DNA from: a virus
Taxonomy: Duplodnaviria > Caudoviricetes
Reading direction: 5' to 3' (one strand)
Length of the DNA: 56,321 bases
IMG/VR virus record: IMGVR_UViG_3300035682_000045
Span: 1-56,321 of that record
The translations under genes and the position numbers were made by a program. Below the pieces are notes generated by a model, which had not been told where the DNA came from, ran no database searches, and saw nothing but the letters and a program-made list of their open reading frames with translations. Shown piece after piece: positions 2,761 through 19,769 of this stretch (position 1 is the first letter of the stretch; each line of letters opens with the position of its first letter).

Positions 2761-5700
2761 ATGGCAACAAGAATGCAACAGCGTAGAGGAACCGCAGCTC
2801 AGTGGATTTCTACTAACTCAGGCCAAGGACCAGTCCTTAACGCTGGTGAAATTGGTTTTGAAATAGATAACAACAGATTTAAGATTGGTGATGGTGTAAA
2901 TCACTGGGTAGACCTTCCATACTTTGCTAATAATGAGGCGATTACTGATTTAATTGATGGAGCCCCAGCCCTATTAGATACTCTTAATGAGCTTGCAGCT
3001 GCAGTTGGTGATGACCCAGCTTTCTTTACAACAGTTGCCACAAACCTATCTAACCACCAATCAGACACTACTAATATTCACGGTATTGCAGACACATCTC
3101 TTCTTGCAACAACAGCTAATGTTGCAACAGCAAAATCAGAAGCAATTTCTGCTGCCTCTTCAGACGCTACAACAAAGGCTAACGCAGCACAGTCTACAGC
3201 AATCTCAGCAGCAGCAGCAGATGCTACTTCAAAGGCTAACGCAGCTCAAGCAGCAGCAGAAGCAACAGCCTCTGCAGATGCAACATCTAAGGCAAATGCT
3301 GCACGAACTGCAGCAGAAGCAACAGCAGCATCAGCACTTTCAACTGCAATCTCAACAGAGGTTTCAAACCGCAACACAGCAATTTCAACTGCAGTAGATT
3401 CATTAGTAGATGGTGCGCCAGCACTTCTTAATACATTAAATGAATTAGCAGCAGCAATTAACGATGATGCTAATTACACCACAACTATTACAACAGCACT
3501 AGGAACAAAAGCTCCATTAGCTTCTCCAGATTTAACTGGTGTTCCAACTGCTCCAACAGCAGCAGCAAATACAAATACAACTCAGATTGCTACAACAGCG
3601 TTTGCAAAAGCAGAAGCAGATGCAGCTCAAGTAGCAGCAGAAGTAGATGCTACTTCAAAGGCTAACGCAGCTCAAGCAGCAGCAATCTCAGCAGCAGCAG
3701 CAGATGCTACTTCAAAGGCTACATCCGCTCAAGCAGCAGCAGAGGCAACCGCAGCAGCAGCTCTTTCAGCACATGACTCAGATACAACAAATGTTCATGG
3801 AATTGCAAATACATCGCTGCTTGAAACACAATCAGGGGCTCAAACTAAAGTAGACACACATAGTTCAGATACAACAGGTGTGCATGGTATTGCAGATACA
3901 TCATTGCTTGAAACACAAACAGGTGCTCAAACTAAGGCAGACTCTGCAGTTAGCTCTCATAGCTCAGATACAACAAATATTCACGGTATTGCAGACACGC
4001 AAGCTCTTGAAACACAAACAGGTGCTCAAGACAAAGTAGATTCTCACAATTCTGCTACAACAAATGTACACGGTATTGAAGACACAGCAGACTTGGCTAC
4101 ACAACAGTATGTTCTTGATCAAATTGCAAACTCAACAGGAGATTATCCAGACTTAGCTGGAGAAGGTCTTGATTGGAATGGAGTTACTTTAGCATTTGAT
4201 ATTGATTCAACAGTTGCAACTAAGACTTATGCAGACACAGCAGTTTCAACACACTCATCTGACACTACATCAGTTCATGGTATTACAGATACTGCAGAAT
4301 TAGCAACTAAGGCATTTGCAGCAGAACTTCTTACAAATGCAACTAAGACAAATGTTACTATTACAGGCGATAAGAATGGTTTGACCATTACAGCTGAAAA
4401 TGGAGTAGCAGACTCCACAACTTCTGATTTAGCAGAAGGAACAAACCTTTACTTTACAAATGAAAGAGCACAAGATGCAATTGGAAATTCTCTTGGAACT
4501 GGACTTACATATACAGATTCAACAGGAGCAATTTCTGTAACTACAAACACATACGATTCCTATGGATCAGCAAGTGCTGTAGCAGGAGATCTTTCTACAC
4601 ATACTTCAGATACAACAGATGTTCACGGTATTGCAAACACTGCAAACCTAGCTACAAAACAATATGCTGCAAGTCTTTTGCTTAATGCAACTAAAACCAA
4701 TATCACAATAACAGGAGACGTAGATGGTCTCACTATTAATGCTGAAAACGGAGTAGCTGATTCTGATACAGACTTCCTTACAGAGGGAACAAACAATCTT
4801 TACTTTACAACAGAGAGAGCACAAGATGCAGTAGGAAACTCTGTTGGAACTGGTCTTTCATATAACGATGCAACTGGAGCAGTTTCTGTAGATACAACAG
4901 CAATCCAGGCTCGTGTAGCAGATGTTTCTGATACAGAAATTGGATACTTAAATGGAGTTACTTCATCAATTCAAAACCAGATTGATACTAAAGCAGCACT
5001 AGTTTCTCCTACATTTACAGGTACCGTTTCAGGTATTACAAAGACAATGGTGGGATTAGGCAACGTAGATAATACTTCAGATGCAAACAAGCCAGTATCT
5101 ACTGCACAAGCTTCAGCAATTGCTACTGCTAAGTCAGAGGCTATTGCGGATGCAACATCTCAGGTTACATCTGTTATTGATGGTGCACCAGCTGCACTAA
5201 ATACACTTAATGAACTTGCAGCAGCTCTTGGAGATGATGCTAACTTTGCTTCAACAATTACATCAACACTTTCAACAAAAGCACCAATAGATGCCCCAAC
5301 GTTTACTGGAACTGTTTCTGGTATTACTAAGTCAATGGTTGGTCTTGGAAATGTAGACAACACATCAGATTCAAGCAAGCCAATATCTTCAGCAACCCAA
5401 ACAGCATTAGATGCTAAGCTTGCATCAGCAACAGCAGCAAGCACTTATGCACCAATTGATTCTCCTACTTTCACAGGAACAGTTGCAGGCGTAACAAAGG
5501 CACACGTAGGTCTTGGTAATGTTGATAATACATCTGATGCAAGCAAGCCAGTGTCCACAGCGACACAGACTGCACTTGATCTAAAGGCAAACACTTCCGA
5601 TGTTGCAGAACTTGCACAGGATGCAGTTAATACAGCAATTGTTGCTGGTACTGGACTAGACAAGGTATACAGCGACGTAGCAAATACAATTACACTTGAT

Positions 5701-8046
5701 ATTGATTCAACTGTTGCTACACTAACTGGTACACAGACCCTTACAAACAAGACTCTAACATCTCCAGCAATTACTACACCAACTGGAATTACAAAGTCAG
5801 ATGTTGGTTTGGCAAATGTTGATAATACAACAGATGCAGGTAAGCCAGTTTCAACTGCTACACAAACAGCACTTGATCTTAAGGCACCACTAGCAAACCC
5901 AACATTCACAGGAACAGTAACTCTACCAACTGGAACAGTTACTTCAGGAATGATCCTTGATGGAGCAATCGTAAACGCAGACATTAATGCGTCTGCAGCA
6001 ATTGCACAATCAAAGATTTCAGGACTTACTACAGACCTATCTTCTAAGCTAGCACTTGCTGGCGGTACAATGACAGGAGCACTTACACTATCAGGTTCAC
6101 CAACAGAATCTCTTCATGCAGCAACAAAGGCATATGTGGATTCTGCTGTAGAAGGACTTCATGTTCATCCATCTGTAAAGGCAGCTACAACAGCAAACAT
6201 AACACTTGCAACTGCTGTTGAAAATGGAGATACTATTGACGGAGTTACTCTTGCTACTGGAGATCGTATTTTGGTTAAGAACCAGACTACAACTTCACAA
6301 AATGGTATTTACGTTGTAGCAGCAACAGGTGCTCCAACTCGTGCTACAGATTTTGATACAGCAGCAGAAGTTGATTCTGGTGACTTCGTATTCGTAGATC
6401 AAGGTACCACTAATGCTAATACTGGATGGGTACAAATTAATACTCCTGCAACTATTGGAACAGATGCTATAGAGTTCGTTCAGTTCTCAGGCGCTGGAAC
6501 CTACCTAGCAGGTAGCGCACTTACATTAACTGGTAATACATTCTCTATTGCAGATGGAGCAATTACATCAGCCAAACTCGCAGATGGAACAATTGTAGAC
6601 GCAGATGTTAACGCATCAGCAGCAATTGCACAGTCTAAGATTTCAGGTTTAACATCTGATCTTGCTGCTAAGGCACCAATCAATGCCCCAACGTTTACTG
6701 GAACTGTTTCTGGTATTACTAAGTCAATGGTTGGTCTTGGTAACGTAGATAATACTACAGACGCAGGAAAGCCAGTCTCTACTGCTACACAAACTGCACT
6801 TGACCTAAAGGCTCCTTTGGCAAACCCTACTTTCACAGGAACTGTCTCTGGTGTAACAAAATCACATGTTGGACTTGGAAGCGTTGATAATACAGCAGAT
6901 GCTGATAAGCCAGTATCTTCTGCGACAACAACAGCCCTTGCACTAAAGGCAAACCTTGCTTCACCAACACTGACTGGAACTCCTTTATCTACAACAGCTA
7001 CTGCTGATACAAATACAACACAAATTGCTACTACAGCATATGTAGTTGGACAAGCATCATCAACAACTCCAGTAATGAATGGAACAGCTGCAACAGGAAC
7101 ATCGTTAAAATATGCCCGTGCAGACCACGTTCACGCAACTGATACTTCTAGAGCTCCACTTGCAAGCCCTACATTTACTGGCACTGTAACTCTTCCAACT
7201 GGAACAGTAACATCTGCAATGATTCTTGATGGAACAATTGTTAATGGAGATATCAGTGCAACTGCAGAAATTGCTCAGTCTAAGATTTCAGGACTTTCAA
7301 CAAGTCTTGGTCTTAAGGCAGATCTTGCTTCTCCAGCACTTACTGGTACCCCAACAGCACCTACAGCTACTGCTGGTACAAATACTACTCAGGTAGCAAC
7401 AACAGCATTCGTAGGAACAGCAGTTGCAGATCTTGTAGCCTCAGCTCCAGCAGCACTTAATACTCTGAACGAGTTGGCAACTGCTCTTGGAAATGATGCA
7501 AACTTCTCAACAACAGTAACAACATCTCTTGCATCTAAGGCTCCTCTAGCATCACCTACATTTACTGGTACAGCTACAATACCTACACTAACACTTACCA
7601 ACCCATTGTCTGCTGCTAACGGCGGTACTGGACTGTCAAGTCTTGGAACAGGCGTAGCAACATTCCTTGGAACACCATCATCTGCAAATCTTGCAGCAAT
7701 GATTACAGATGAAATTGGAACTGGAAACATTGTTCTATCAGAAATTGCAACAAGTTCACAGACAGCATCTTACACACTAGTTGCAGGCGATAGAGGAAAG
7801 CTAGTTGAAATGAATGTTGGTTCTGCTAATACTTTGACAGTACCTCTTGATTCAACAGTTAACTTCCCAGTTGGAACACAAATTGATATCCTACAGGTTG
7901 GATCAGGACAAACAACCGTAGCTGGAGCAGTTGGCGTAACAGTTAATGCTACTCCAGGCTTAAAGATTAGAGCACAATGGGGTGGCGCAACTCTTATTAA
8001 GCGTGCAGCCAACACTTGGGTATTAATTGGAGATCTAACAGCATAG
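2761..8046 (+). CDS. Long repeat-rich fibre protein with an Mtd-N-like N-terminal domain (1761 aa)
   Basis: N-terminus MATRMQQRRGTAAQW...GEIGFEIDNNRFKIGDG...WVDLPY. Many fibre repeats (VGLGNVDNTSD, APAALNTLNELAAA, APLASPTFTG). C-terminal YTLVAGDRGKLVEM...FPVGTQI...WVLIGDL knob. Confidence 0.85.
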   Translation: MATRMQQRRGTAAQWISTNSGQGPVLNAGEIGFEIDNNRFKIGDGVNHWVDLPYFANNEAITDLIDGAPALLDTLNELAAAVGDDPAFFTTVATNLSNHQSDTTNIHGIADTSLLATTANVATAKSEAISAASSDATTKANAAQSTAISAAAADATSKANAAQAAAEATASADATSKANAARTAAEATAASALSTAISTEVSNRNTAISTAVDSLVDGAPALLNTLNELAAAINDDANYTTTITTALGTKAPLASPDLTGVPTAPTAAANTNTTQIATTAFAKAEADAAQVAAEVDATSKANAAQAAAISAAAADATSKATSAQAAAEATAAAALSAHDSDTTNVHGIANTSLLETQSGAQTKVDTHSSDTTGVHGIADTSLLETQTGAQTKADSAVSSHSSDTTNIHGIADTQALETQTGAQDKVDSHNSATTNVHGIEDTADLATQQYVLDQIANSTGDYPDLAGEGLDWNGVTLAFDIDSTVATKTYADTAVSTHSSDTTSVHGITDTAELATKAFAAELLTNATKTNVTITGDKNGLTITAENGVADSTTSDLAEGTNLYFTNERAQDAIGNSLGTGLTYTDSTGAISVTTNTYDSYGSASAVAGDLSTHTSDTTDVHGIANTANLATKQYAASLLLNATKTNITITGDVDGLTINAENGVADSDTDFLTEGTNNLYFTTERAQDAVGNSVGTGLSYNDATGAVSVDTTAIQARVADVSDTEIGYLNGVTSSIQNQIDTKAALVSPTFTGTVSGITKTMVGLGNVDNTSDANKPVSTAQASAIATAKSEAIADATSQVTSVIDGAPAALNTLNELAAALGDDANFASTITSTLSTKAPIDAPTFTGTVSGITKSMVGLGNVDNTSDSSKPISSATQTALDAKLASATAASTYAPIDSPTFTGTVAGVTKAHVGLGNVDNTSDASKPVSTATQTALDLKANTSDVAELAQDAVNTAIVAGTGLDKVYSDVANTITLDIDSTVATLTGTQTLTNKTLTSPAITTPTGITKSDVGLANVDNTTDAGKPVSTATQTALDLKAPLANPTFTGTVTLPTGTVTSGMILDGAIVNADINASAAIAQSKISGLTTDLSSKLALAGGTMTGALTLSGSPTESLHAATKAYVDSAVEGLHVHPSVKAATTANITLATAVENGDTIDGVTLATGDRILVKNQTTTSQNGIYVVAATGAPTRATDFDTAAEVDSGDFVFVDQGTTNANTGWVQINTPATIGTDAIEFVQFSGAGTYLAGSALTLTGNTFSIADGAITSAKLADGTIVDADVNASAAIAQSKISGLTSDLAAKAPINAPTFTGTVSGITKSMVGLGNVDNTTDAGKPVSTATQTALDLKAPLANPTFTGTVSGVTKSHVGLGSVDNTADADKPVSSATTTALALKANLASPTLTGTPLSTTATADTNTTQIATTAYVVGQASSTTPVMNGTAATGTSLKYARADHVHATDTSRAPLASPTFTGTVTLPTGTVTSAMILDGTIVNGDISATAEIAQSKISGLSTSLGLKADLASPALTGTPTAPTATAGTNTTQVATTAFVGTAVADLVASAPAALNTLNELATALGNDANFSTTVTTSLASKAPLASPTFTGTATIPTLTLTNPLSAANGGTGLSSLGTGVATFLGTPSSANLAAMITDEIGTGNIVLSEIATSSQTASYTLVAGDRGKLVEMNVGSANTLTVPLDSTVNFPVGTQIDILQVGSGQTTVAGAVGVTVNATPGLKIRAQWGGATLIKRAANTWVLIGDLTA
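5291..6740 (+). repeat. 58-bp exact direct repeat (5291-5348 and 6683-6740) within the fibre gene
   Basis: atgccccaacgtttactggaactgtttctggtattactaagtcaatggttggtcttgg occurs twice. Confidence 0.85.
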
Positions 8047-8195: not shown

Positions 8196-10229
8196 ATGTC
8201 AGAAAGCGTATTTTCATTTCGTTTGTCAGAAGAGTTTGTAAATAAATATCAATTAATTCCAGCACCTTTTGGATTCTCAGATGCAGGGTCTAACTCTTTG
8301 GGAGAAATAACATTTATTCGTACATATTCTCGTGTCAAGGAAGATGGAACTAAAGAGCGCTGGCATGAAGTTTGTCGTCGTGTAATTGAGGGTATGTATT
8401 CAGTACAAAAGAATCATGCCAAAGATAATCGTCTACCATGGAATGATAACAAAGCACAAAAGTCTGCACAAGAAGCCTTTCAAAGAATGTTTGAATTAAA
8501 GTGGACACCACCAGGCCGTGGTCTTTGGGCATTTGGAACTCCCATGACAATGGAAAAGCGTAACTCCGCTTCCCTTCAAAACTGTGCAATGGTGTCAACA
8601 AGAGACATTGATCGCAATGATCCTGGTGCATTATTTGCTTGGGTGATGGATGCATTAATGCTGGGTATTGGAGTAGGGTTTGATACCCTTGGACAAGACA
8701 AGCAAATGTCTATTTATGCTCCTACTGAGCCAGCATCTATTTATGAAATTCCTGATACCCGTGAAGGATGGGTTGAGTCAGTCCGTCTTTTAATTAATTC
8801 ATTCCTTCGTCAAAATCAACCAGTACAAGAGTTTAACTATGACCTTATCCGTCCTCTAGGTGCCCCTATTAAGGGCTTTGGTGGCGTTGCAAGCGGTCCA
8901 GCACCACTTATTGATCTCCATACACGCATTCGTAATGTAATTGGTTCTAGAGCAGGAGAAGCTTTAGATAGCCGTGCTATTGTAGACATTGTTAACCTAA
9001 TTGGAACATGTGTTGTATCTGGTAATGTTCGTCGCTCTGCAACTCTTGCACTTGGTACTCCAGAAGATAATGGTTTTATTAATCTTAAGAACCCAGAAGT
9101 ATTTCCAGATCGTAACTCCTATGATCCAGAAAAGCCAGGTTGGGCATGGATGTCTAATAATTCTATTTCTGCTGAAGTTGGAACAAAGTATGAAGATTAT
9201 GTTGATTTAATTGCAGACAATGGAGAACCAGGATTTATCTGGCTTGATGTTGCAAGAGATTATGGTCGCCTTGCAGATGCACCAGACTATAAGGATTCCC
9301 GAATCATGGGATTCAATCCTTGTGCGGAGCAGCCATTAGAGTCATACGAACTTTGTACGCTTGTAGAAGTGCACCTTAATCGTCATGAGTCTAAGGAGGA
9401 CTTCCTCAAGACATTGAAGTTTGCATATCTTTATGGAAAGACTGTAACTCTTATGCCAACACATTGGCCAGTAACAAACGGTATTATGCAAAGAAACCGT
9501 CGCATTGGCACATCTTTGACAGGTATTGCTGCATTTGCAGATCAATATGGTTTACCTACAACCCGTGAGTGGATGGACGAAGGCTACAACACAATTCGTA
9601 AATATGATCACCAGTACTCAGAATGGCTATGTGTTCGTGAATCAGTTCGTGTAACAACGGTCAAGCCATCAGGATCAGTTTCCCTTCTTTCTGGTGCAAC
9701 TCCTGGAGTTCACTGGGGACCTGGCGGAGAGTTCTATCTACGTGCCATTCGCTTTGGTAACCAAGACCCAATGCTACATCTTTTCAAAGCTGCAGGGTAT
9801 AAGATTGAAGATGATCTAGTATCAGCAAATACATCAGTGGTTTACTTCCCAGTTGCATCAGGACATAGACGTGCTGAGAAGCAGGTTAGCCTATTTGAGA
9901 AGATTGGTTTGGCAGCAACTGCTCAGAAGTACTGGTCAGATAATGGTGTTTCTGTAACTCTTTCTTTTGATAAAGACACAGAAAAGCAATTTGTTGCCCC
10001 AGCTCTAAATATGTATGAGGGTCAGCTAAAGGCAGTCTCATTTCTTCCAATGGGCAATAAGACATATCCTCAACAGCCATATACAGAAATATCAAGAGAA
10101 GAATACAACGCATACGTAGGAACAATTGGTAAGATTGATTGGTCTGCTATTTATGATGGTGTAGAAAACCTTGAGGCTCAAGGTGAAGCCTACTGCTCAA
10201 CAGATGCTTGCGAACTTAAAACATATTAA
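8196..10229 (+). CDS. nrdJ: Class II adenosylcobalamin-dependent ribonucleotide reductase (monomeric type)
   Basis: Motifs RTYSR, PPGRGLW, LQNC, GNVRRSA, catalytic NPCAE, TTVKPSGSVS and C-terminal CSTDAC redox cysteines. Confidence 0.93.
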   Translation: MSESVFSFRLSEEFVNKYQLIPAPFGFSDAGSNSLGEITFIRTYSRVKEDGTKERWHEVCRRVIEGMYSVQKNHAKDNRLPWNDNKAQKSAQEAFQRMFELKWTPPGRGLWAFGTPMTMEKRNSASLQNCAMVSTRDIDRNDPGALFAWVMDALMLGIGVGFDTLGQDKQMSIYAPTEPASIYEIPDTREGWVESVRLLINSFLRQNQPVQEFNYDLIRPLGAPIKGFGGVASGPAPLIDLHTRIRNVIGSRAGEALDSRAIVDIVNLIGTCVVSGNVRRSATLALGTPEDNGFINLKNPEVFPDRNSYDPEKPGWAWMSNNSISAEVGTKYEDYVDLIADNGEPGFIWLDVARDYGRLADAPDYKDSRIMGFNPCAEQPLESYELCTLVEVHLNRHESKEDFLKTLKFAYLYGKTVTLMPTHWPVTNGIMQRNRRIGTSLTGIAAFADQYGLPTTREWMDEGYNTIRKYDHQYSEWLCVRESVRVTTVKPSGSVSLLSGATPGVHWGPGGEFYLRAIRFGNQDPMLHLFKAAGYKIEDDLVSANTSVVYFPVASGHRRAEKQVSLFEKIGLAATAQKYWSDNGVSVTLSFDKDTEKQFVAPALNMYEGQLKAVSFLPMGNKTYPQQPYTEISREEYNAYVGTIGKIDWSAIYDGVENLEAQGEAYCSTDACELKTY

Positions 10230-10260: not shown

Positions 10261-10269
10261 TGGTATACT
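10261..10269 (+). promoter_or_regulatory. Extended -10 promoter TGGTATACT, probably giving a leaderless mRNA
   Basis: ATG at 10277 lies 7 nt after the hexamer; no SD. Confidence 0.55.
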
Positions 10270-10276
10270 TATGGTT

Positions 10277-10687
10277 ATGAGTAAAACAAATAATCCATTA
10301 ATTAATCCAAACACTGGTTTGCCAATTGTTGGAAACGTACGTAAAAAGGTAATTGAAAAGAACTACGACTGGGGTCTTTACGTATATAAAAAGGCTAATG
10401 GGCGATGGTTTACTGACGGCAACGGAAATGTGCTCAACATTGAGTCCATGCGTAGCGATATTTCAAAAATAACTGAGCTAAAGAATGCAGCAAAATACTA
10501 TGGTGATGCAGGTGACGGAGAAGCAATCTTCGTTCCTGGACTTACACGCATTTCAGAAGAAGAGCATTCGGAGCAGCTTGACCGTATGGTTAATGGTTTG
10601 ATTCCTTCACAAAATGACTTAGGTGCTTGGAAGGCTGCAAAAGATACACTAAATACATATGGAAGAGAAGCGTACGAAAATGGCTAA
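10277..10687 (+). CDS. Hypothetical protein upstream of portal
   Basis: ORF with phage-like codon usage that overlaps the portal start. Second ATG chosen from promoter spacing. Confidence 0.7.
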   Translation: MSKTNNPLINPNTGLPIVGNVRKKVIEKNYDWGLYVYKKANGRWFTDGNGNVLNIESMRSDISKITELKNAAKYYGDAGDGEAIFVPGLTRISEEEHSEQLDRMVNGLIPSQNDLGAWKAAKDTLNTYGREAYENG

Positions 10688-12306: not shown

Positions 12307-12315
12307 TGGTATAAT
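12307..12315 (+). promoter_or_regulatory. Extended -10 promoter TGGTATAAT
   Basis: 9 nt before the protease ATG; no SD. Confidence 0.6.
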
Positions 12316-12324
12316 AGAATCGTC

Positions 12325-13632
12325 ATGAATATAAATAAAGCACATTGGTCAACAGACGGCGATAATGTACGTCTGTCAATGCCACTTACAAAAGTAGACA
12401 AAGAGAAGCGCATCGTTTCTGGATTTGCATCTTTGGATAACCTTGATAAGCAAGACGATATCGTCACAACAGAAGCATCTATGCAAGCATTTGCAAAGTT
12501 CCGTGGAAATATCAGAGAAATGCATCAACCATCAGCAGTAGGCAAGATGGTTTCATTTAAAGAAGAAAAGTATTTTGACCCAGAGTCAAAGAAGTTTTAT
12601 AAGGGTGTTTTTGTATCAGCGTATATCTCAAAGGGCGCACAGGATGCATGGGAAAAGGTTCTTGATGGAACCTACACTGGTTTTTCTATTGGGGGACGAA
12701 TGAACAAGTGGGATGATGCATATGATGAAAAAGCAGATAAGACAATTAGAGTTATTAAAGAATATGATTTGATTGAGTTGAGTCTTGTAGATTCCCCAGC
12801 AAATCAATTTGCAAATATTGTATCCGTTGAAAAGGTTGACGGAGTAGACACACTGACAGGTTCATCAGCTAATGTAGTTGTTGAGAATGTATTTTATGAT
12901 TCAGAGTCTGGAATAGTAACTCTATCTGCAAACGAATCAGAGGTAAGTCCAGTTACTGGCGAAGAAATGAAAAACATTGGTTTTGTTGAAAAAAATGATT
13001 CAGAAAAAGTAGAAATGATAAAGTTCTTAGTTGATAGTGCAAAAGGCATTAGAACAATTAAGATAGCAAAGGAGGATAATCCTATGACAGAAGAAACAAC
13101 AGCAGTTGTTGATGCTCTAGCAGCACCAGCAGCAGAGGTAGTTAATGAAGTTGAGGTTGCTCCAGAGGCTCCTGCAGAGGCAGTTGCAAAGTCACTAGAA
13201 GTTACAGAAGAAGTTGTAGCAGAAAAGTCAGATGCAGTTGTTGAAGAGGTTAGTGCTCCTTCTATTGAAGAAGTAACAGAGAAGGCTGACGAAGCAATCG
13301 TTGAGGTTGCAACAGCAACAGCAGAAGTTGCTAAAGCAGTTTCTGAAATCCAGAACTCTGTAACTAATGCCTTGAGCGATCTAGCAGCAACAGTAAAGGC
13401 TATGCAAGCTAATGTTGATGCAATTACAAAGTCTCTTGAATCCGTAACAGAGGAAGTTAAGGAAGTTAAGGGAAGCTTTAATGAGTTTGGAAAGACCGTA
13501 GATGCCGTAGTTGCAGATACCGCTTTCCGCAAGTCTGGCGATCTCGGCGAGATTGTACAGGAATCACCTAAAGTGATTCAGAAATCCCTATGGGGCGGAC
13601 GTTTCCTCACAAATTCCGACCTATTTAACTAA
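12325..13632 (+). CDS. HK97-type prohead protease fused to an acidic scaffold domain
   Basis: VSGFAS...LDKQDD, REMH, GFSIGG and LIELSLVDSPANQFA; Glu/Ala-rich coiled-coil C-terminal half. Confidence 0.88.
   Translation: MNINKAHWSTDGDNVRLSMPLTKVDKEKRIVSGFASLDNLDKQDDIVTTEASMQAFAKFRGNIREMHQPSAVGKMVSFKEEKYFDPESKKFYKGVFVSAYISKGAQDAWEKVLDGTYTGFSIGGRMNKWDDAYDEKADKTIRVIKEYDLIELSLVDSPANQFANIVSVEKVDGVDTLTGSSANVVVENVFYDSESGIVTLSANESEVSPVTGEEMKNIGFVEKNDSEKVEMIKFLVDSAKGIRTIKIAKEDNPMTEETTAVVDALAAPAAEVVNEVEVAPEAPAEAVAKSLEVTEEVVAEKSDAVVEEVSAPSIEEVTEKADEAIVEVATATAEVAKAVSEIQNSVTNALSDLAATVKAMQANVDAITKSLESVTEEVKEVKGSFNEFGKTVDAVVADTAFRKSGDLGEIVQESPKVIQKSLWGGRFLTNSDLFN
13084..13632 (+). CDS. Putative nested in-frame scaffolding protein
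   Basis: Internal SD GGAGG (13071-13075) 8 nt before in-frame ATG 13084 (MTEETT...). Confidence 0.6.
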   Translation: MTEETTAVVDALAAPAAEVVNEVEVAPEAPAEAVAKSLEVTEEVVAEKSDAVVEEVSAPSIEEVTEKADEAIVEVATATAEVAKAVSEIQNSVTNALSDLAATVKAMQANVDAITKSLESVTEEVKEVKGSFNEFGKTVDAVVADTAFRKSGDLGEIVQESPKVIQKSLWGGRFLTNSDLFN

Positions 13633-14852: not shown

Positions 14853-14868
14853 AGCAGTGGAGGATACA

Positions 14869-15207
14869 ATGTCATTAATAGATGAATTAAAAAGTAAAAC
14901 TGTCTTTGAACTAAAGTCATACGCAAAGAAAAATAACATTGACCTATTTGGGGTAAGTACAAAAAATGATATTTTAGAGGTAATTTTTAGCTTTGTGCCT
15001 AAAGAGTCATCAGAGCTAGTGGTTAAAAAGCAAGAGCCAAAAGAGAAGGTAGCAATTTATTCAGTTCGCAATCTTTACTGGAATGGCGTTGGTGAGTTAA
15101 CCAAGGGGTATAACATAGTCACTAAGGAGGATGCTGATAAATGGATAACAAACAAGTCTGTACGCACAGCTTCTCCAGAAGAAGTGAAGAGAGCATACGG
15201 TAAGTAA
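14869..15207 (+). CDS. Hypothetical protein with a Rho-N/HeH-like helical N-terminus
   Basis: ELKSKTVFELKSYAKKNNI...KNDILEVI pattern; SD GGAGG. Confidence 0.6.
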   Translation: MSLIDELKSKTVFELKSYAKKNNIDLFGVSTKNDILEVIFSFVPKESSELVVKKQEPKEKVAIYSVRNLYWNGVGELTKGYNIVTKEDADKWITNKSVRTASPEEVKRAYGK

Positions 15208-18614: not shown

Positions 18615-18650
18615 AGCCCATCTCATAACGAGGTGGGCTTTGTTGTTTTT
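18615..18650 (+). terminator. Intrinsic terminator after the major tail gene
   Basis: AGCCCATCTC-ataac-GAGGTGGGCT followed by TTGTTGTTTTT. Confidence 0.8.
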
Positions 18651-18651
18651 G

Positions 18652-18660
18652 TGGTAAACT
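18652..18660 (+). promoter_or_regulatory. Non-consensus extended -10 promoter TGGTAAACT
   Basis: 9 nt before ATG 18670; no SD. Confidence 0.5.
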
Positions 18661-18669
18661 TAATAGACT

Positions 18670-19368
18670 ATGGCAACAACTATATATAAGACTAAAAATA
18701 TATTTTTATTTGATGGCACAGAGATAGAGACAATGCCTCTTAAGATTAAGTATCTTAGAGAGTTTATGGATGCATTTGATAAAATAAGATATACCAAAGA
18801 TGATGATGAAGCTATGCTAGTTTTGCTTGAATGCACACGAATTGCAATGAAGCAGTATTGTCCAATAATATCAAAAACAGTAGAAGATGTTGAAAATAAC
18901 ATAGATTTACCAACAATGCATGAAATACTAGAAATTGCTGGAAACATTAAGGTAGCCCCAGAGTCTGATGAAGATGTAAAAACTCAGGCACAAAAGGGAG
19001 ATGCTGGACCAACATGGGAAGAGTTTGATTTAGCAAAAATTGAATCAGAGGTATTCTTGCTGGGTATATGGAAAGACTATAATGAGCTAGAAGAGTCTTT
19101 GTCATTAGCAGAAATAATGGCAATACTATCAAGTAAAAGAGAACTAGATTATCAGGAAAAGAAGTTTTTTGCAGCAATACAGGGAGTAGATATAGAAGAT
19201 TCAAATGACTCTGATCGTGGTCAACAAGAATGGGAAAACCTTAAAGCAAGAGTATTTAGTGGTGGAGCAACAAGTGATAGCAAAGATATTTTAGCCCTTC
19301 AAGGACAAAATGCTAGAAGCGCAGGGTTTGGAATTGGCATGGGTCTTGATTATGAAGATCTTAGATAA
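18670..19368 (+). CDS. Tail assembly chaperone, long (GT-like) form
   Basis: Between major tail and tape measure genes. N-terminal ~95 aa are paralogous to the next gene, followed by a C-terminal WKDYNELEESLSLAEI domain. Confidence 0.7.
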   Translation: MATTIYKTKNIFLFDGTEIETMPLKIKYLREFMDAFDKIRYTKDDDEAMLVLLECTRIAMKQYCPIISKTVEDVENNIDLPTMHEILEIAGNIKVAPESDEDVKTQAQKGDAGPTWEEFDLAKIESEVFLLGIWKDYNELEESLSLAEIMAILSSKRELDYQEKKFFAAIQGVDIEDSNDSDRGQQEWENLKARVFSGGATSDSKDILALQGQNARSAGFGIGMGLDYEDLR

Positions 19369-19382
19369 AATAAACGTTATTA

Positions 19383-19391
19383 TGCTATAAT
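19383..19391 (+). promoter_or_regulatory. Consensus extended -10 promoter TGCTATAAT
   Basis: Intergenic; followed by SD GGGAGGG. Confidence 0.6.
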
Positions 19392-19418
19392 TGATACAAA
19401 CCTATGGGAGGGATCAAT

Positions 19419-19745
19419 ATGGCAACAACAGTGCACGAAGCACATGTGATTAAGCTACTTGATGGTACAGAAATTACTCTAAGACCGCTTAAGATTTCAC
19501 TTTTACGAAAGTTTATGAAAAAGTTTGAGGGTATCGCTGCAGTAGTAGATAACAATGAGAAATCAATTGACTTGCTAATGGAGTGCGTAGTAATTGCTAT
19601 GGAGCAATATGCTGCTGGACTATCAGTAGATCTTGCAAATTTAGAAGAAAACATTGACTTGCCTACTGTATATCAGATTGTTGAAGTAGCATCAGGAATT
19701 CCACTTTCTGAAGCAGCAGCAATTTTCAGTAGCGATGAAGAATAA
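19419..19745 (+). CDS. Tail assembly chaperone, short (G-like) form, 108 aa
   Basis: SD before ATG 19419; MATT...DGTEI...PLKI...IAM.QY...NIDLPT is shared with the previous gene. Confidence 0.7.
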   Translation: MATTVHEAHVIKLLDGTEITLRPLKISLLRKFMKKFEGIAAVVDNNEKSIDLLMECVVIAMEQYAAGLSVDLANLEENIDLPTVYQIVEVASGIPLSEAAAIFSSDEE

Positions 19746-19769
19746 CAACTAAATAAAGAGGTGTAGTGA

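Follow-up and report, generated by a model that had tools for sequence, protein, structure and literature searches.

We analysed a 56,321-bp virus record from IMG/VR (IMGVR_UViG_3300035682_000045; the whole of this stretch is called the window below), in which two putative tail assembly chaperone genes occupy the slot flanked by the genes for the major tail (tube) protein and the tape measure protein. In bacteriophage lambda this slot yields a short protein, gpG, and a long one, gpGT, which share the G part, the long form carrying in addition the T extension. Long-tailed phages normally produce both forms at a single locus through programmed frameshifting. A review (PMC5009743) describes the tape measure protein as the binding partner of G and of the G part of GT, the tube protein as that of T, and a G:GT molar ratio of ~30:1 as crucial. 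The G/GT frameshift is the textbook example of how recoding can fix the ratio of two proteins, and it serves annotators as a mark of tail chaperone genes. In the window, exactly two open reading frames (ORFs), of 232 and 108 amino acids (aa), lie between the tube and tape measure genes, at the positions reported in a preliminary description of this DNA (Table 1). We refer to ORF1 as GT, to its G part as G1 and to ORF2 as G2. Comparison with related loci shows that in this lineage the programmed −1 frameshift has been replaced by these two paralogous genes, the fused ORF1 being the constitutive equivalent of GT and ORF2 a stand-alone G placed just before the tape measure gene.

Table 1. Features of the tail chaperone locus, in window coordinates.
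Feature	Position	Strand	Basis or remark
Major tail (tube) protein gene, 213 aa	17951–18592	+	phrog_2175, E 7e-33; homologues annotated as major tail protein in Streptomyces phages
Intrinsic terminator: hairpin 18615–18639, T-run 18640–18649	18615–18649	+	top terminator-like site in a scan of 13–26 kb
Extended −10-like box TGGTAAACT, hexamer TAAACT	18652–18660	+	9 nt before the ORF1 ATG
GT gene (ORF1), 232 aa, in-frame G-T fusion	18670–19368	+	phrog_10504, phrog_10474, tblastn
GT, G-like domain (G1), residues 1–97	18670–18960	+	phrog_10504, E 5e-20 (residues 1–106)
GT, linker, residues 98–113	18961–19008	+	between the G-like and T-like domains
GT, T-like domain, residues 114–232	19009–19365	+	phrog_10474, E 3.6e-14 (residues 133–193)
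Formal in-phase heptamer A_AAG_GGA in the GT linker	18993–18999	+	not conserved
Consensus extended −10 box TGCTATAAT	19383–19391	+	27 nt before the G2 ATG
Shine-Dalgarno sequence GGGAGGG	19406–19412	+	6 nt before the G2 ATG
G2 gene (ORF2), stand-alone G-like chaperone, 108 aa, starts MATTVHE	19419–19745	+	phrog_10504, E 1.3e-19
Shine-Dalgarno sequence AAAGAGGTG of the tape measure gene	19755–19763	+	conserved in the listed relatives
Tape measure protein gene, 1779 aa	19770–25109	+	Pfam PhageMin_Tail (PF10145), E 9.2e-25; position as for annotated tape measure genes of relatives

The tube protein also resembles the Pfam family Phage_TTP_17 (E 2.3e-4), a match under the family cutoff. We place the start of G2 at 19419 because an alternative ATG at 19404 overlaps the Shine-Dalgarno (SD) sequence and is lacking in many relatives. 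BLASTP aligns residues 1–96 of ORF1 with residues 1–97 of ORF2 at 43/97 identical positions (44%, E 2e-26), in line with the ~40–45% over the first ~95 aa estimated by hand in the preliminary description; all the motifs named there (MATT, DGTEI, PLKI, LRxFM, EC, IAMxQY and NIDLPT) fall within the alignment. A search of the phage's own genome returned only these two copies of the G-like gene. Both N-terminal parts match the same family, phrog_10504, and the tail of ORF1 matches a separate one, phrog_10474, to which the T reading frame belongs in related Streptomyces and Rhodococcus phages as well as in the metagenomic locus L096 (see below); the long form, which comes first, does continue in frame into a T-like domain as had been proposed. 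Neither ORF matched any Pfam family, and both PHROG families carry the label 'unknown function'. Since the relatives possess separate G and −1 T homologues, ORF1 is by homology an in-frame G-T fusion and ORF2 a second G. The part shared by the short and long products is paralogous, not identical.

The layout of the relatives is the canonical one. Searching 50,697 phage records with ORF1 by tblastn gave 130 matching records (127 Streptomyces and 3 Rhodococcus phages; 36–45% identity), and in all of the 40 records listed the match fell into two pieces over adjacent annotated genes, often both named tail assembly chaperone. We examined seven isolates (Coruscant, Mildred21, TunaTartare, Francesca, Annadreamy, Birchlyn and Tomas). 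All seven have a single G gene of 114–174 aa, and their counterpart of the ORF1 tail lies in the −1 frame, where its open frame shares 22–64 nt with the 3′ end of G; a classical X_XXY_YYZ heptamer is present in three, and the TunaTartare and Francesca records annotate a joined frameshift coding sequence. L096 (44% GC), a closer relative, is organized in the same way: its single G shares 47% identity with each of the two window copies, a CCCAAAA heptamer is present, and T (56% identical) is in the −1 frame. With L096 included the overlap ranges from 19 to 64 nt, and T follows a single G in the −1 frame in 8/8 of these loci. Of 384 representatives at 50% identity, the best 150 comprised 94 T-only ORFs, 49 G-only ORFs and 7 proteins holding both G and T, four of these being full-length (227–295 aa). 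Because fusion is so rare among these 150, we regard the frameshift layout as the broad background and the fusion as the derived state of one very abundant clade; by this comparison, the fused GT + G2 arrangement is derived from the single-G/−1 T layout.

Within that clade the arrangement is highly uniform. At E ≤ 1e-3 the fused form was found in 6089 protein clusters, every one of the 120 listed being 232–239 aa long, and IMG/VR holds at least 593 matching stretches. In a first set of 80 loci, 79 contain, in this order, the tube gene, GT (230–245 aa, one frame), G2 (105–110 aa) and the tape measure gene; in the 80th (L008) another ORF is inserted after GT and the contig ends within it. Two further scans gave 86 loci, 83 with fused GT and G2, two whose contigs end before the position of G2, and the canonical L096, and the layout was also present in 3/3 contigs of metagenome-assembled genomes from GTDB (the sets overlap, at least 6 contigs having been fetched twice). 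G and T thus form one open frame in the window and in 165/169 related loci, which are 54–88% identical and come from many samples, and no loss of G2 was seen among loci of the clade with complete data. The comparison of related phages for frameshift versus duplicated layouts, which the preliminary description had called for, gives the former in the seven isolates and L096 and the latter in 79/80, 83/86 and 3/3 loci.

The short gap between GT and G2 is a site of insertion. In L034 (3700–4340) the insert is an ORF for an HNH-type endonuclease, which has a TGnTAnAnT box of its own and leaves the TGGTATAAT box of G2 in place; in L008 (3700–4223) it is another ORF, over 170 aa long and still open where the contig ends. 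The three contigs from metagenome-assembled genomes (L176, L177 and L178) are labelled Acidimicrobiaceae, Bifidobacterium sp. and Chitinophagia, a weak and inconsistent hint at the host, and phage contigs are often mis-binned.

A tree of 49 G1, 49 G2 and 7 isolate G sequences places all G1 in one clade (SH-aLRT 96) and all G2 in another (95), with G1 and G2 together split from the isolates at 99, a topology that fits one duplication followed by co-divergence. The tree tests are compatible with a duplication that either preceded or followed the divergence of the L096 lineage. Of the two branches, that of G1 is the longer (1.05 versus 0.88 for G2, or 1.02 versus 0.30 with L096 added), and G1 and G2 are 36–48% identical within any single locus. 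Pairwise ratios of nonsynonymous to synonymous substitution rates (dN/dS) come to 0.15 in G1, 0.12 in T and 0.17 in G2, against 0.49 in the linker; both genes are maintained by purifying selection (0.13–0.17 for the two). Motifs shared with the single G of relatives (PLKI, LRxFM, EC..IAM.QY and NIDLPT) are retained in both G1 and G2. The earlier proposal that gene duplication has replaced recoding is supported by the single G and −1 T of all eight of these relatives (the seven isolates and L096), by the fusion and paralogous G of the clade with their separate G1 and G2 branches, and by purifying selection. The route we propose starts with duplication; one copy would then have become fused in frame and the other would have lost T, and promoters and leaders would have been retuned last. 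Six short G1-type proteins (P0133, P0153, P0160, P0175, P0178 and P0172) were considered as unfused intermediates and rejected; their sequences turn unrelated midway or end early, as in truncated or chimeric gene calls.

To compare recoding and expression signals across the clade, we used 57 distinct sequences from 77 complete loci, the window included. No conserved in-phase slippery heptamer was found in GT or in G2. The preliminary description had seen no such heptamer at all; that statement is too strong for the window itself, where a formal A_AAG_GGA lies in the linker, and it holds for the clade, in which AAAGGGA occurs at that codon in only 6/57 sequences and AAAGGGT in one more. Because of this scarcity the heptamer is probably fortuitous; in the window, a −1 slip on it would meet a stop after ~10 codons. 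Downstream of G2 the tape measure gene starts after 24 nt in the window and 17–28 nt across loci, a distance so short that it leaves no room for a T frame. The programmed frameshift, the trait by which the G/GT chaperone family is usually defined, is absent from the window locus, where G and T share one frame.

In the AlphaFold2 model of GT (predicted local distance difference test, pLDDT, 88.9; predicted template modelling score 0.75), residues 1–91 form a beta-hairpin and four helices, and the T part is helical. The best two of 48,161 PDB representatives, both on the G part, were B. subtilis YqbN (3klu; Z 6.1, root-mean-square deviation 3.8, 85 residues aligned, residues 1–94) and the HK97 tail assembly chaperone (2ob9; Z 4.9, root-mean-square deviation 3.6, 82 aligned), both with modest Z values, which when this low may reflect merely a common arrangement. 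We take YqbN to be the skin-element homologue of the PBSX chaperone XkdN. In BFVD the top matches were two proteins without a name, one of 215 aa (E 1.8e-13) and one of 273 aa (E 8e-8), followed by a tail assembly chaperone of 'uncultured Caudovirales' (E 2.2e-4; template modelling score 0.73 on the target) and, among weak matches, by many chaperone names, including N15 GT at E 0.07. A complex prediction of the T part (residues 110–232) with the tube protein gave an interface score (ipSAE) of 0.36 against 0.00 for the best control, with contact agreement between runs of at least 71% and a partner pLDDT of at least 49. The mark used for such predictions is reached by 58/80 solved complexes and 2/110 mismatched pairs, and a score of 0.60 or below characterizes just 7 of the 80 solved complexes and both passing mismatches, so that the result lends weak support to binding of the tube protein by T.

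The two genes are preceded by different and strongly conserved signals. Upstream of GT, a stable hairpin (minimum free energy below −10 kcal/mol) with a T-run is present in 57/57 sequences, and in an alignment of 47 distinct upstream regions compensatory changes are seen at 6 of the 10 predicted pairs and hardly any pair is broken, in keeping with the terminator noted earlier at this place. Directly after the T-run all 57 carry a box of the form TGnTA[A/G]A[A/C]T, with the hexamer TAAACT in 30, TAGAAT in 13, TAAAAT in 11 and TAGACT in 3, and TATAAT in none. The ATG follows the end of the box after 7–9 nt in 49/57 and after 14–15 nt in 7/57 (the remaining value of 0 nt is taken as a motif mis-hit), and an SD-like run before GT is found in only 5/57. 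As bacterial transcription usually starts ~6–8 nt downstream of the −10 hexamer, this spacing suggests that the GT message is leaderless or carries a leader of 0–3 nt. The non-consensus box and missing SD previously ascribed to the long gene are thus features of the clade.

Upstream of G2, TGnTATAAT stands 23–29 nt before the ATG and is followed by an SD sequence in 57/57, so that the consensus promoter and strong SD ascribed to the short gene are kept throughout. In many relatives GT is 238 aa long, with a six-residue C-terminal extension (...RDPSLMV), and its stop codon TAA lies inside the TATAAT box of G2 (...ATGGTATAA followed by T); the box is kept in spite of this overlap of coding sequence and promoter. 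No terminator was seen between GT and G2. Within the window the TGNTATAAT motif occurs 9 times, always on the plus strand, against 4.1 copies expected on both strands, and 8 of the 9 copies are intergenic, though intergenic DNA makes up 5.4% of the window. TGNTAAACT alone is not enriched there (4 found, 4.6 expected), nor are terminators in a general scan (8 found, 8.6 expected in shuffles).

The spacing seen before GT recurs elsewhere in the window. At 12307–12327 a TGGTATAAT box lies 9 nt from the ATG (12325) of the prohead protease gene, and at 10261–10279 a TGGTATACT box lies 7–9 nt from the ATG (10271 or 10277) of a small gene before the portal gene, in both cases without an SD sequence. 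This phage seems to use leaderless starts repeatedly.

Parts of this arrangement are already found in the canonical relatives, namely Stanwilliamsviridae phages of Streptomyces, the Rhodococcus phage Francesca and L096. These carry true homologues of both domains (G 36–47% and T 35–56% identical); their tube gene, too, is followed by a terminator, and their G is preceded by an extended −10 box. Unlike the window, they have a single G, preceded by a promoter and an SD-bearing leader, a T in the −1 frame overlapping G, and no second copy of G. The box before G is TGCTATAAT or TGATATAAT in four Boydwoodruffvirinae, TGCTATAAT in L096, TGGTAAACT in TunaTartare and, without the TG, GGTAAACT in Annadreamy. 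L096 (2840–2885) has in addition a TGGTATACT box between the T stop codon and the tape measure start, so that the tape measure gene may have had a promoter in front of it already before G2 was inserted or duplicated.

The reading that best accounts for the locus as a whole, to which we assign a probability of roughly 0.7, is that frameshifting has been replaced by a fused GT and a paralogous G2, with the ratio of the two products set by nested transcription units and unequal translation starts. By homology, and as in lambda, the G-like parts would coat the tape measure protein and the T part would recruit the tube protein. Transcripts of the highly expressed tube gene would stop at the conserved terminator, after which the non-consensus extended −10 promoter would start a leaderless or nearly leaderless (0–3 nt) GT message without an SD. 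This message would run on into G2, because no terminator follows GT, and so would also carry G2. The second promoter, with its perfect TGnTATAAT at or inside the 3′ end of GT, would add messages for G2 and the tape measure gene, and the strong SD would further favour G2. With the GT transcript carrying G2, an extra promoter and a strong SD, the amount of G2 would never fall below that of GT and would probably exceed it by far, and the nested transcripts would also explain why the long gene comes first. Such a circuit would reproduce the excess of G over GT described for lambda (~30:1) in PMC5009743. We infer that these signals set a short:long ratio well above 1. The anatomy and evolution of this reading are supported; its quantitative claim is plausible.

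A wider claim can be made at slightly better than even odds. It holds that a very abundant clade of uncultured, low-GC siphophages with ~100-kb genomes, probably infecting aquatic Actinobacteria, permanently gave up the G/GT frameshift, which ranks among the most conserved recoding events in virology, for a hard-wired circuit of two genes, in which the rare long form comes from a leaderless message behind a terminator and the abundant short form from two promoters and a strong SD. On this view, with G1 and G2 having diverged to 44% identity, the two G domains must either form mixed assemblies on the tape measure protein or have divided the work, GT as nucleator and G2 as coat.

Several results weigh against replacement of the frameshift by a fused GT and a paralogous G2 with an unequal output. 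In 24/57 sequences the GT box comes close to the consensus (TG together with TAGAAT or TAAAAT), so that a weak promoter before the long gene, as had been supposed from the window, is not universal. Leaderless messages are translated well in Actinobacteria, and the prohead protease gene (phrog_9427) shows the same box–9 nt–ATG geometry with a perfect TATAAT; for both reasons the missing SD need not mean a low output of GT. A general promoter scan was not enriched (39 found, 34.6 expected in shuffles). Three RNA runs, each with only 6–8% of the sampled words, proved at 85% likeness to be assembled contigs of relatives. Their summed depth was hundreds to thousands over the tube gene, dropped after ~18607 and was low over GT, contig depth being unable to rank genes, and none of the listed contigs bridged GT and G2 or G2 and the tape measure gene with 31 letters on each side, where uncovered parts prove nothing; we draw no conclusion from them. 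In the tree, the G of L096 groups with G2 (96/81), with long branches flagged, although a G1+G2 clade is also compatible (approximately unbiased test, p 0.515). Finally, Foldseek found nothing in the PDB for the GT model at E ≤ 0.001, and the matches to solved structures are the modest ones above (Z 6.1 and 4.9).

The alternative that survives best, though we consider it unlikely, accepts the same two-gene anatomy and denies that the boxes set the ratio: the genes would lie on one long late transcript, with any difference between the products arising from translation or protein stability, or with similar amounts being tolerated. The lack of overall enrichment in the scan for sigma-70-type promoters suits this view, as does the gap of 26–28 nt between GT and G2 in many relatives, which places the G2 box within the coding sequence of GT. 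However, TGnTATAAT is kept in 57/57 whether the underlying DNA is coding or not, all copies of the motif in the window are on the coding strand and 8/9 are intergenic, a covarying terminator lies immediately 5′ of the GT box, and the consensus always occurs at the G2 box and never at the GT box.

Less likely still is a divergence of the paralogues in role, G2 having become a specialised tape measure chaperone and the short partner of GT being made from the GT gene itself, through cleavage in the linker or a −1 slip at A_AAG_GGA. The low identity of G1 and G2 within any one locus (36–48%), the longer G1 branch in both trees, the relaxed linker (dN/dS 0.49) and the formal heptamer at 18993–18999 would all fit. 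The heptamer, however, is confined to 6/57 sequences with a variant in one more, both copies retain the motifs of the relatives' single G, and G2 is never lost where the data are complete.

That the ORFs are unrelated small proteins which happen to sit in the slot is very improbable: the missing Pfam match, the 'unknown function' labels in PHROG and the absence of a significant Foldseek hit in the PDB are outweighed by their position between the tube and tape measure genes, their homology to G/−1 T pairs with slippery sites in relatives, the top structural matches being tail assembly chaperones and the weak prediction of T-tube binding. Single-base indels are common in metagenome assemblies, but an assembly or sequencing indel in a normal frameshift locus, with the second ORF a chance duplicate, can be dismissed, given the in-frame fusion in 6089 protein clusters and 165/169 loci of 54–88% identity from many samples and the purifying selection on the genes, the number and diversity of independent contigs excluding an assembly error.

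The fused GT with its duplicated G is a variant of the known G/GT system, conserved across a very large clade of uncultured phages. We found no earlier description of it in the literature searched, which mostly left out subscription journals. It resembles lambda in its slot between the tube and tape measure genes and in a short and a long form sharing a G part, the long one with a T extension, and differs in that G and T lie in one frame without recoding, in that a second gene, with only 44% identity to the G part of the long product, supplies the short form, and in the long gene coming first; similarity to lambda itself is not detectable in sequence (BFVD giving N15 GT at E 0.07). Two published exceptions to the frameshift layout came to light, neither of them described as a duplicated G with an in-frame GT. 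One concerns T4-like phages, whose tail assembly chaperones are, by its title, the subject of a 2022 article in Virology by Vladimirov, Gautam and Davidson; a paper citing it reports signals of a poly-T slip type in the TAC-N genes of T4-like phages, unlike the gene duplication here. Long-tailed phages that apparently do without a frameshift and express two separate ORFs were published in 2020 (PMC7302621); they are alike in appearing to dispense with recoding, and unlike in that neither a duplicated G domain nor an in-frame G-T fusion is reported there.

If the wider claim above, of a hard-wired circuit of two genes, is right, it would be a natural proof that frameshifting is one of several ways to fix the G:GT ratio, and a dated, stepwise example of the loss of recoding. 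Here a natural lineage, with thousands of sequence variants, makes the same two products from duplicated genes with separate conserved signals. This makes it testable whether the frameshift serves stoichiometry only, how much divergence between the G part of GT and G is tolerated, and by what route a recoding site is lost. Frameshift predictors and annotation rules will mislabel fused GT + G2 loci, and in the paired upstream regions nested promoters and a leaderless start would provide a small natural model of how a ratio is controlled.

The remainder of the window, which has a GC content of ~38% and an estimated completeness of 52%, encodes nearly all its genes on the plus strand. Among them, in this order, are portal, prohead protease, capsid and tail genes, genes for three very large proteins of the tail or fibres, and the replication genes for DnaB, primase, DNA polymerase III alpha and RecA. 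ARAGORN finds no tRNA genes in positions 1–56321. Upstream of the ribonucleotide reductase and portal genes, and not within the tail module, a 1761-aa ORF (2761–8046) begins with an Mtd_N domain (major tropism determinant N-terminal; E 3.4e-11). The ribonucleotide reductase gene (8196–10229; phrog_367, E 4e-142), with RNR_Alpha and B12-dependent ribonucleotide reductase insertion domains, lies between this ORF and the head genes. Just 3′ of the capsid gene, a small ORF (14857–15207) shows a weak match to endonuclease VII-type proteins (phrog_3281, E 1.3e-6) and is preceded by TGATATAAT and an SD sequence.

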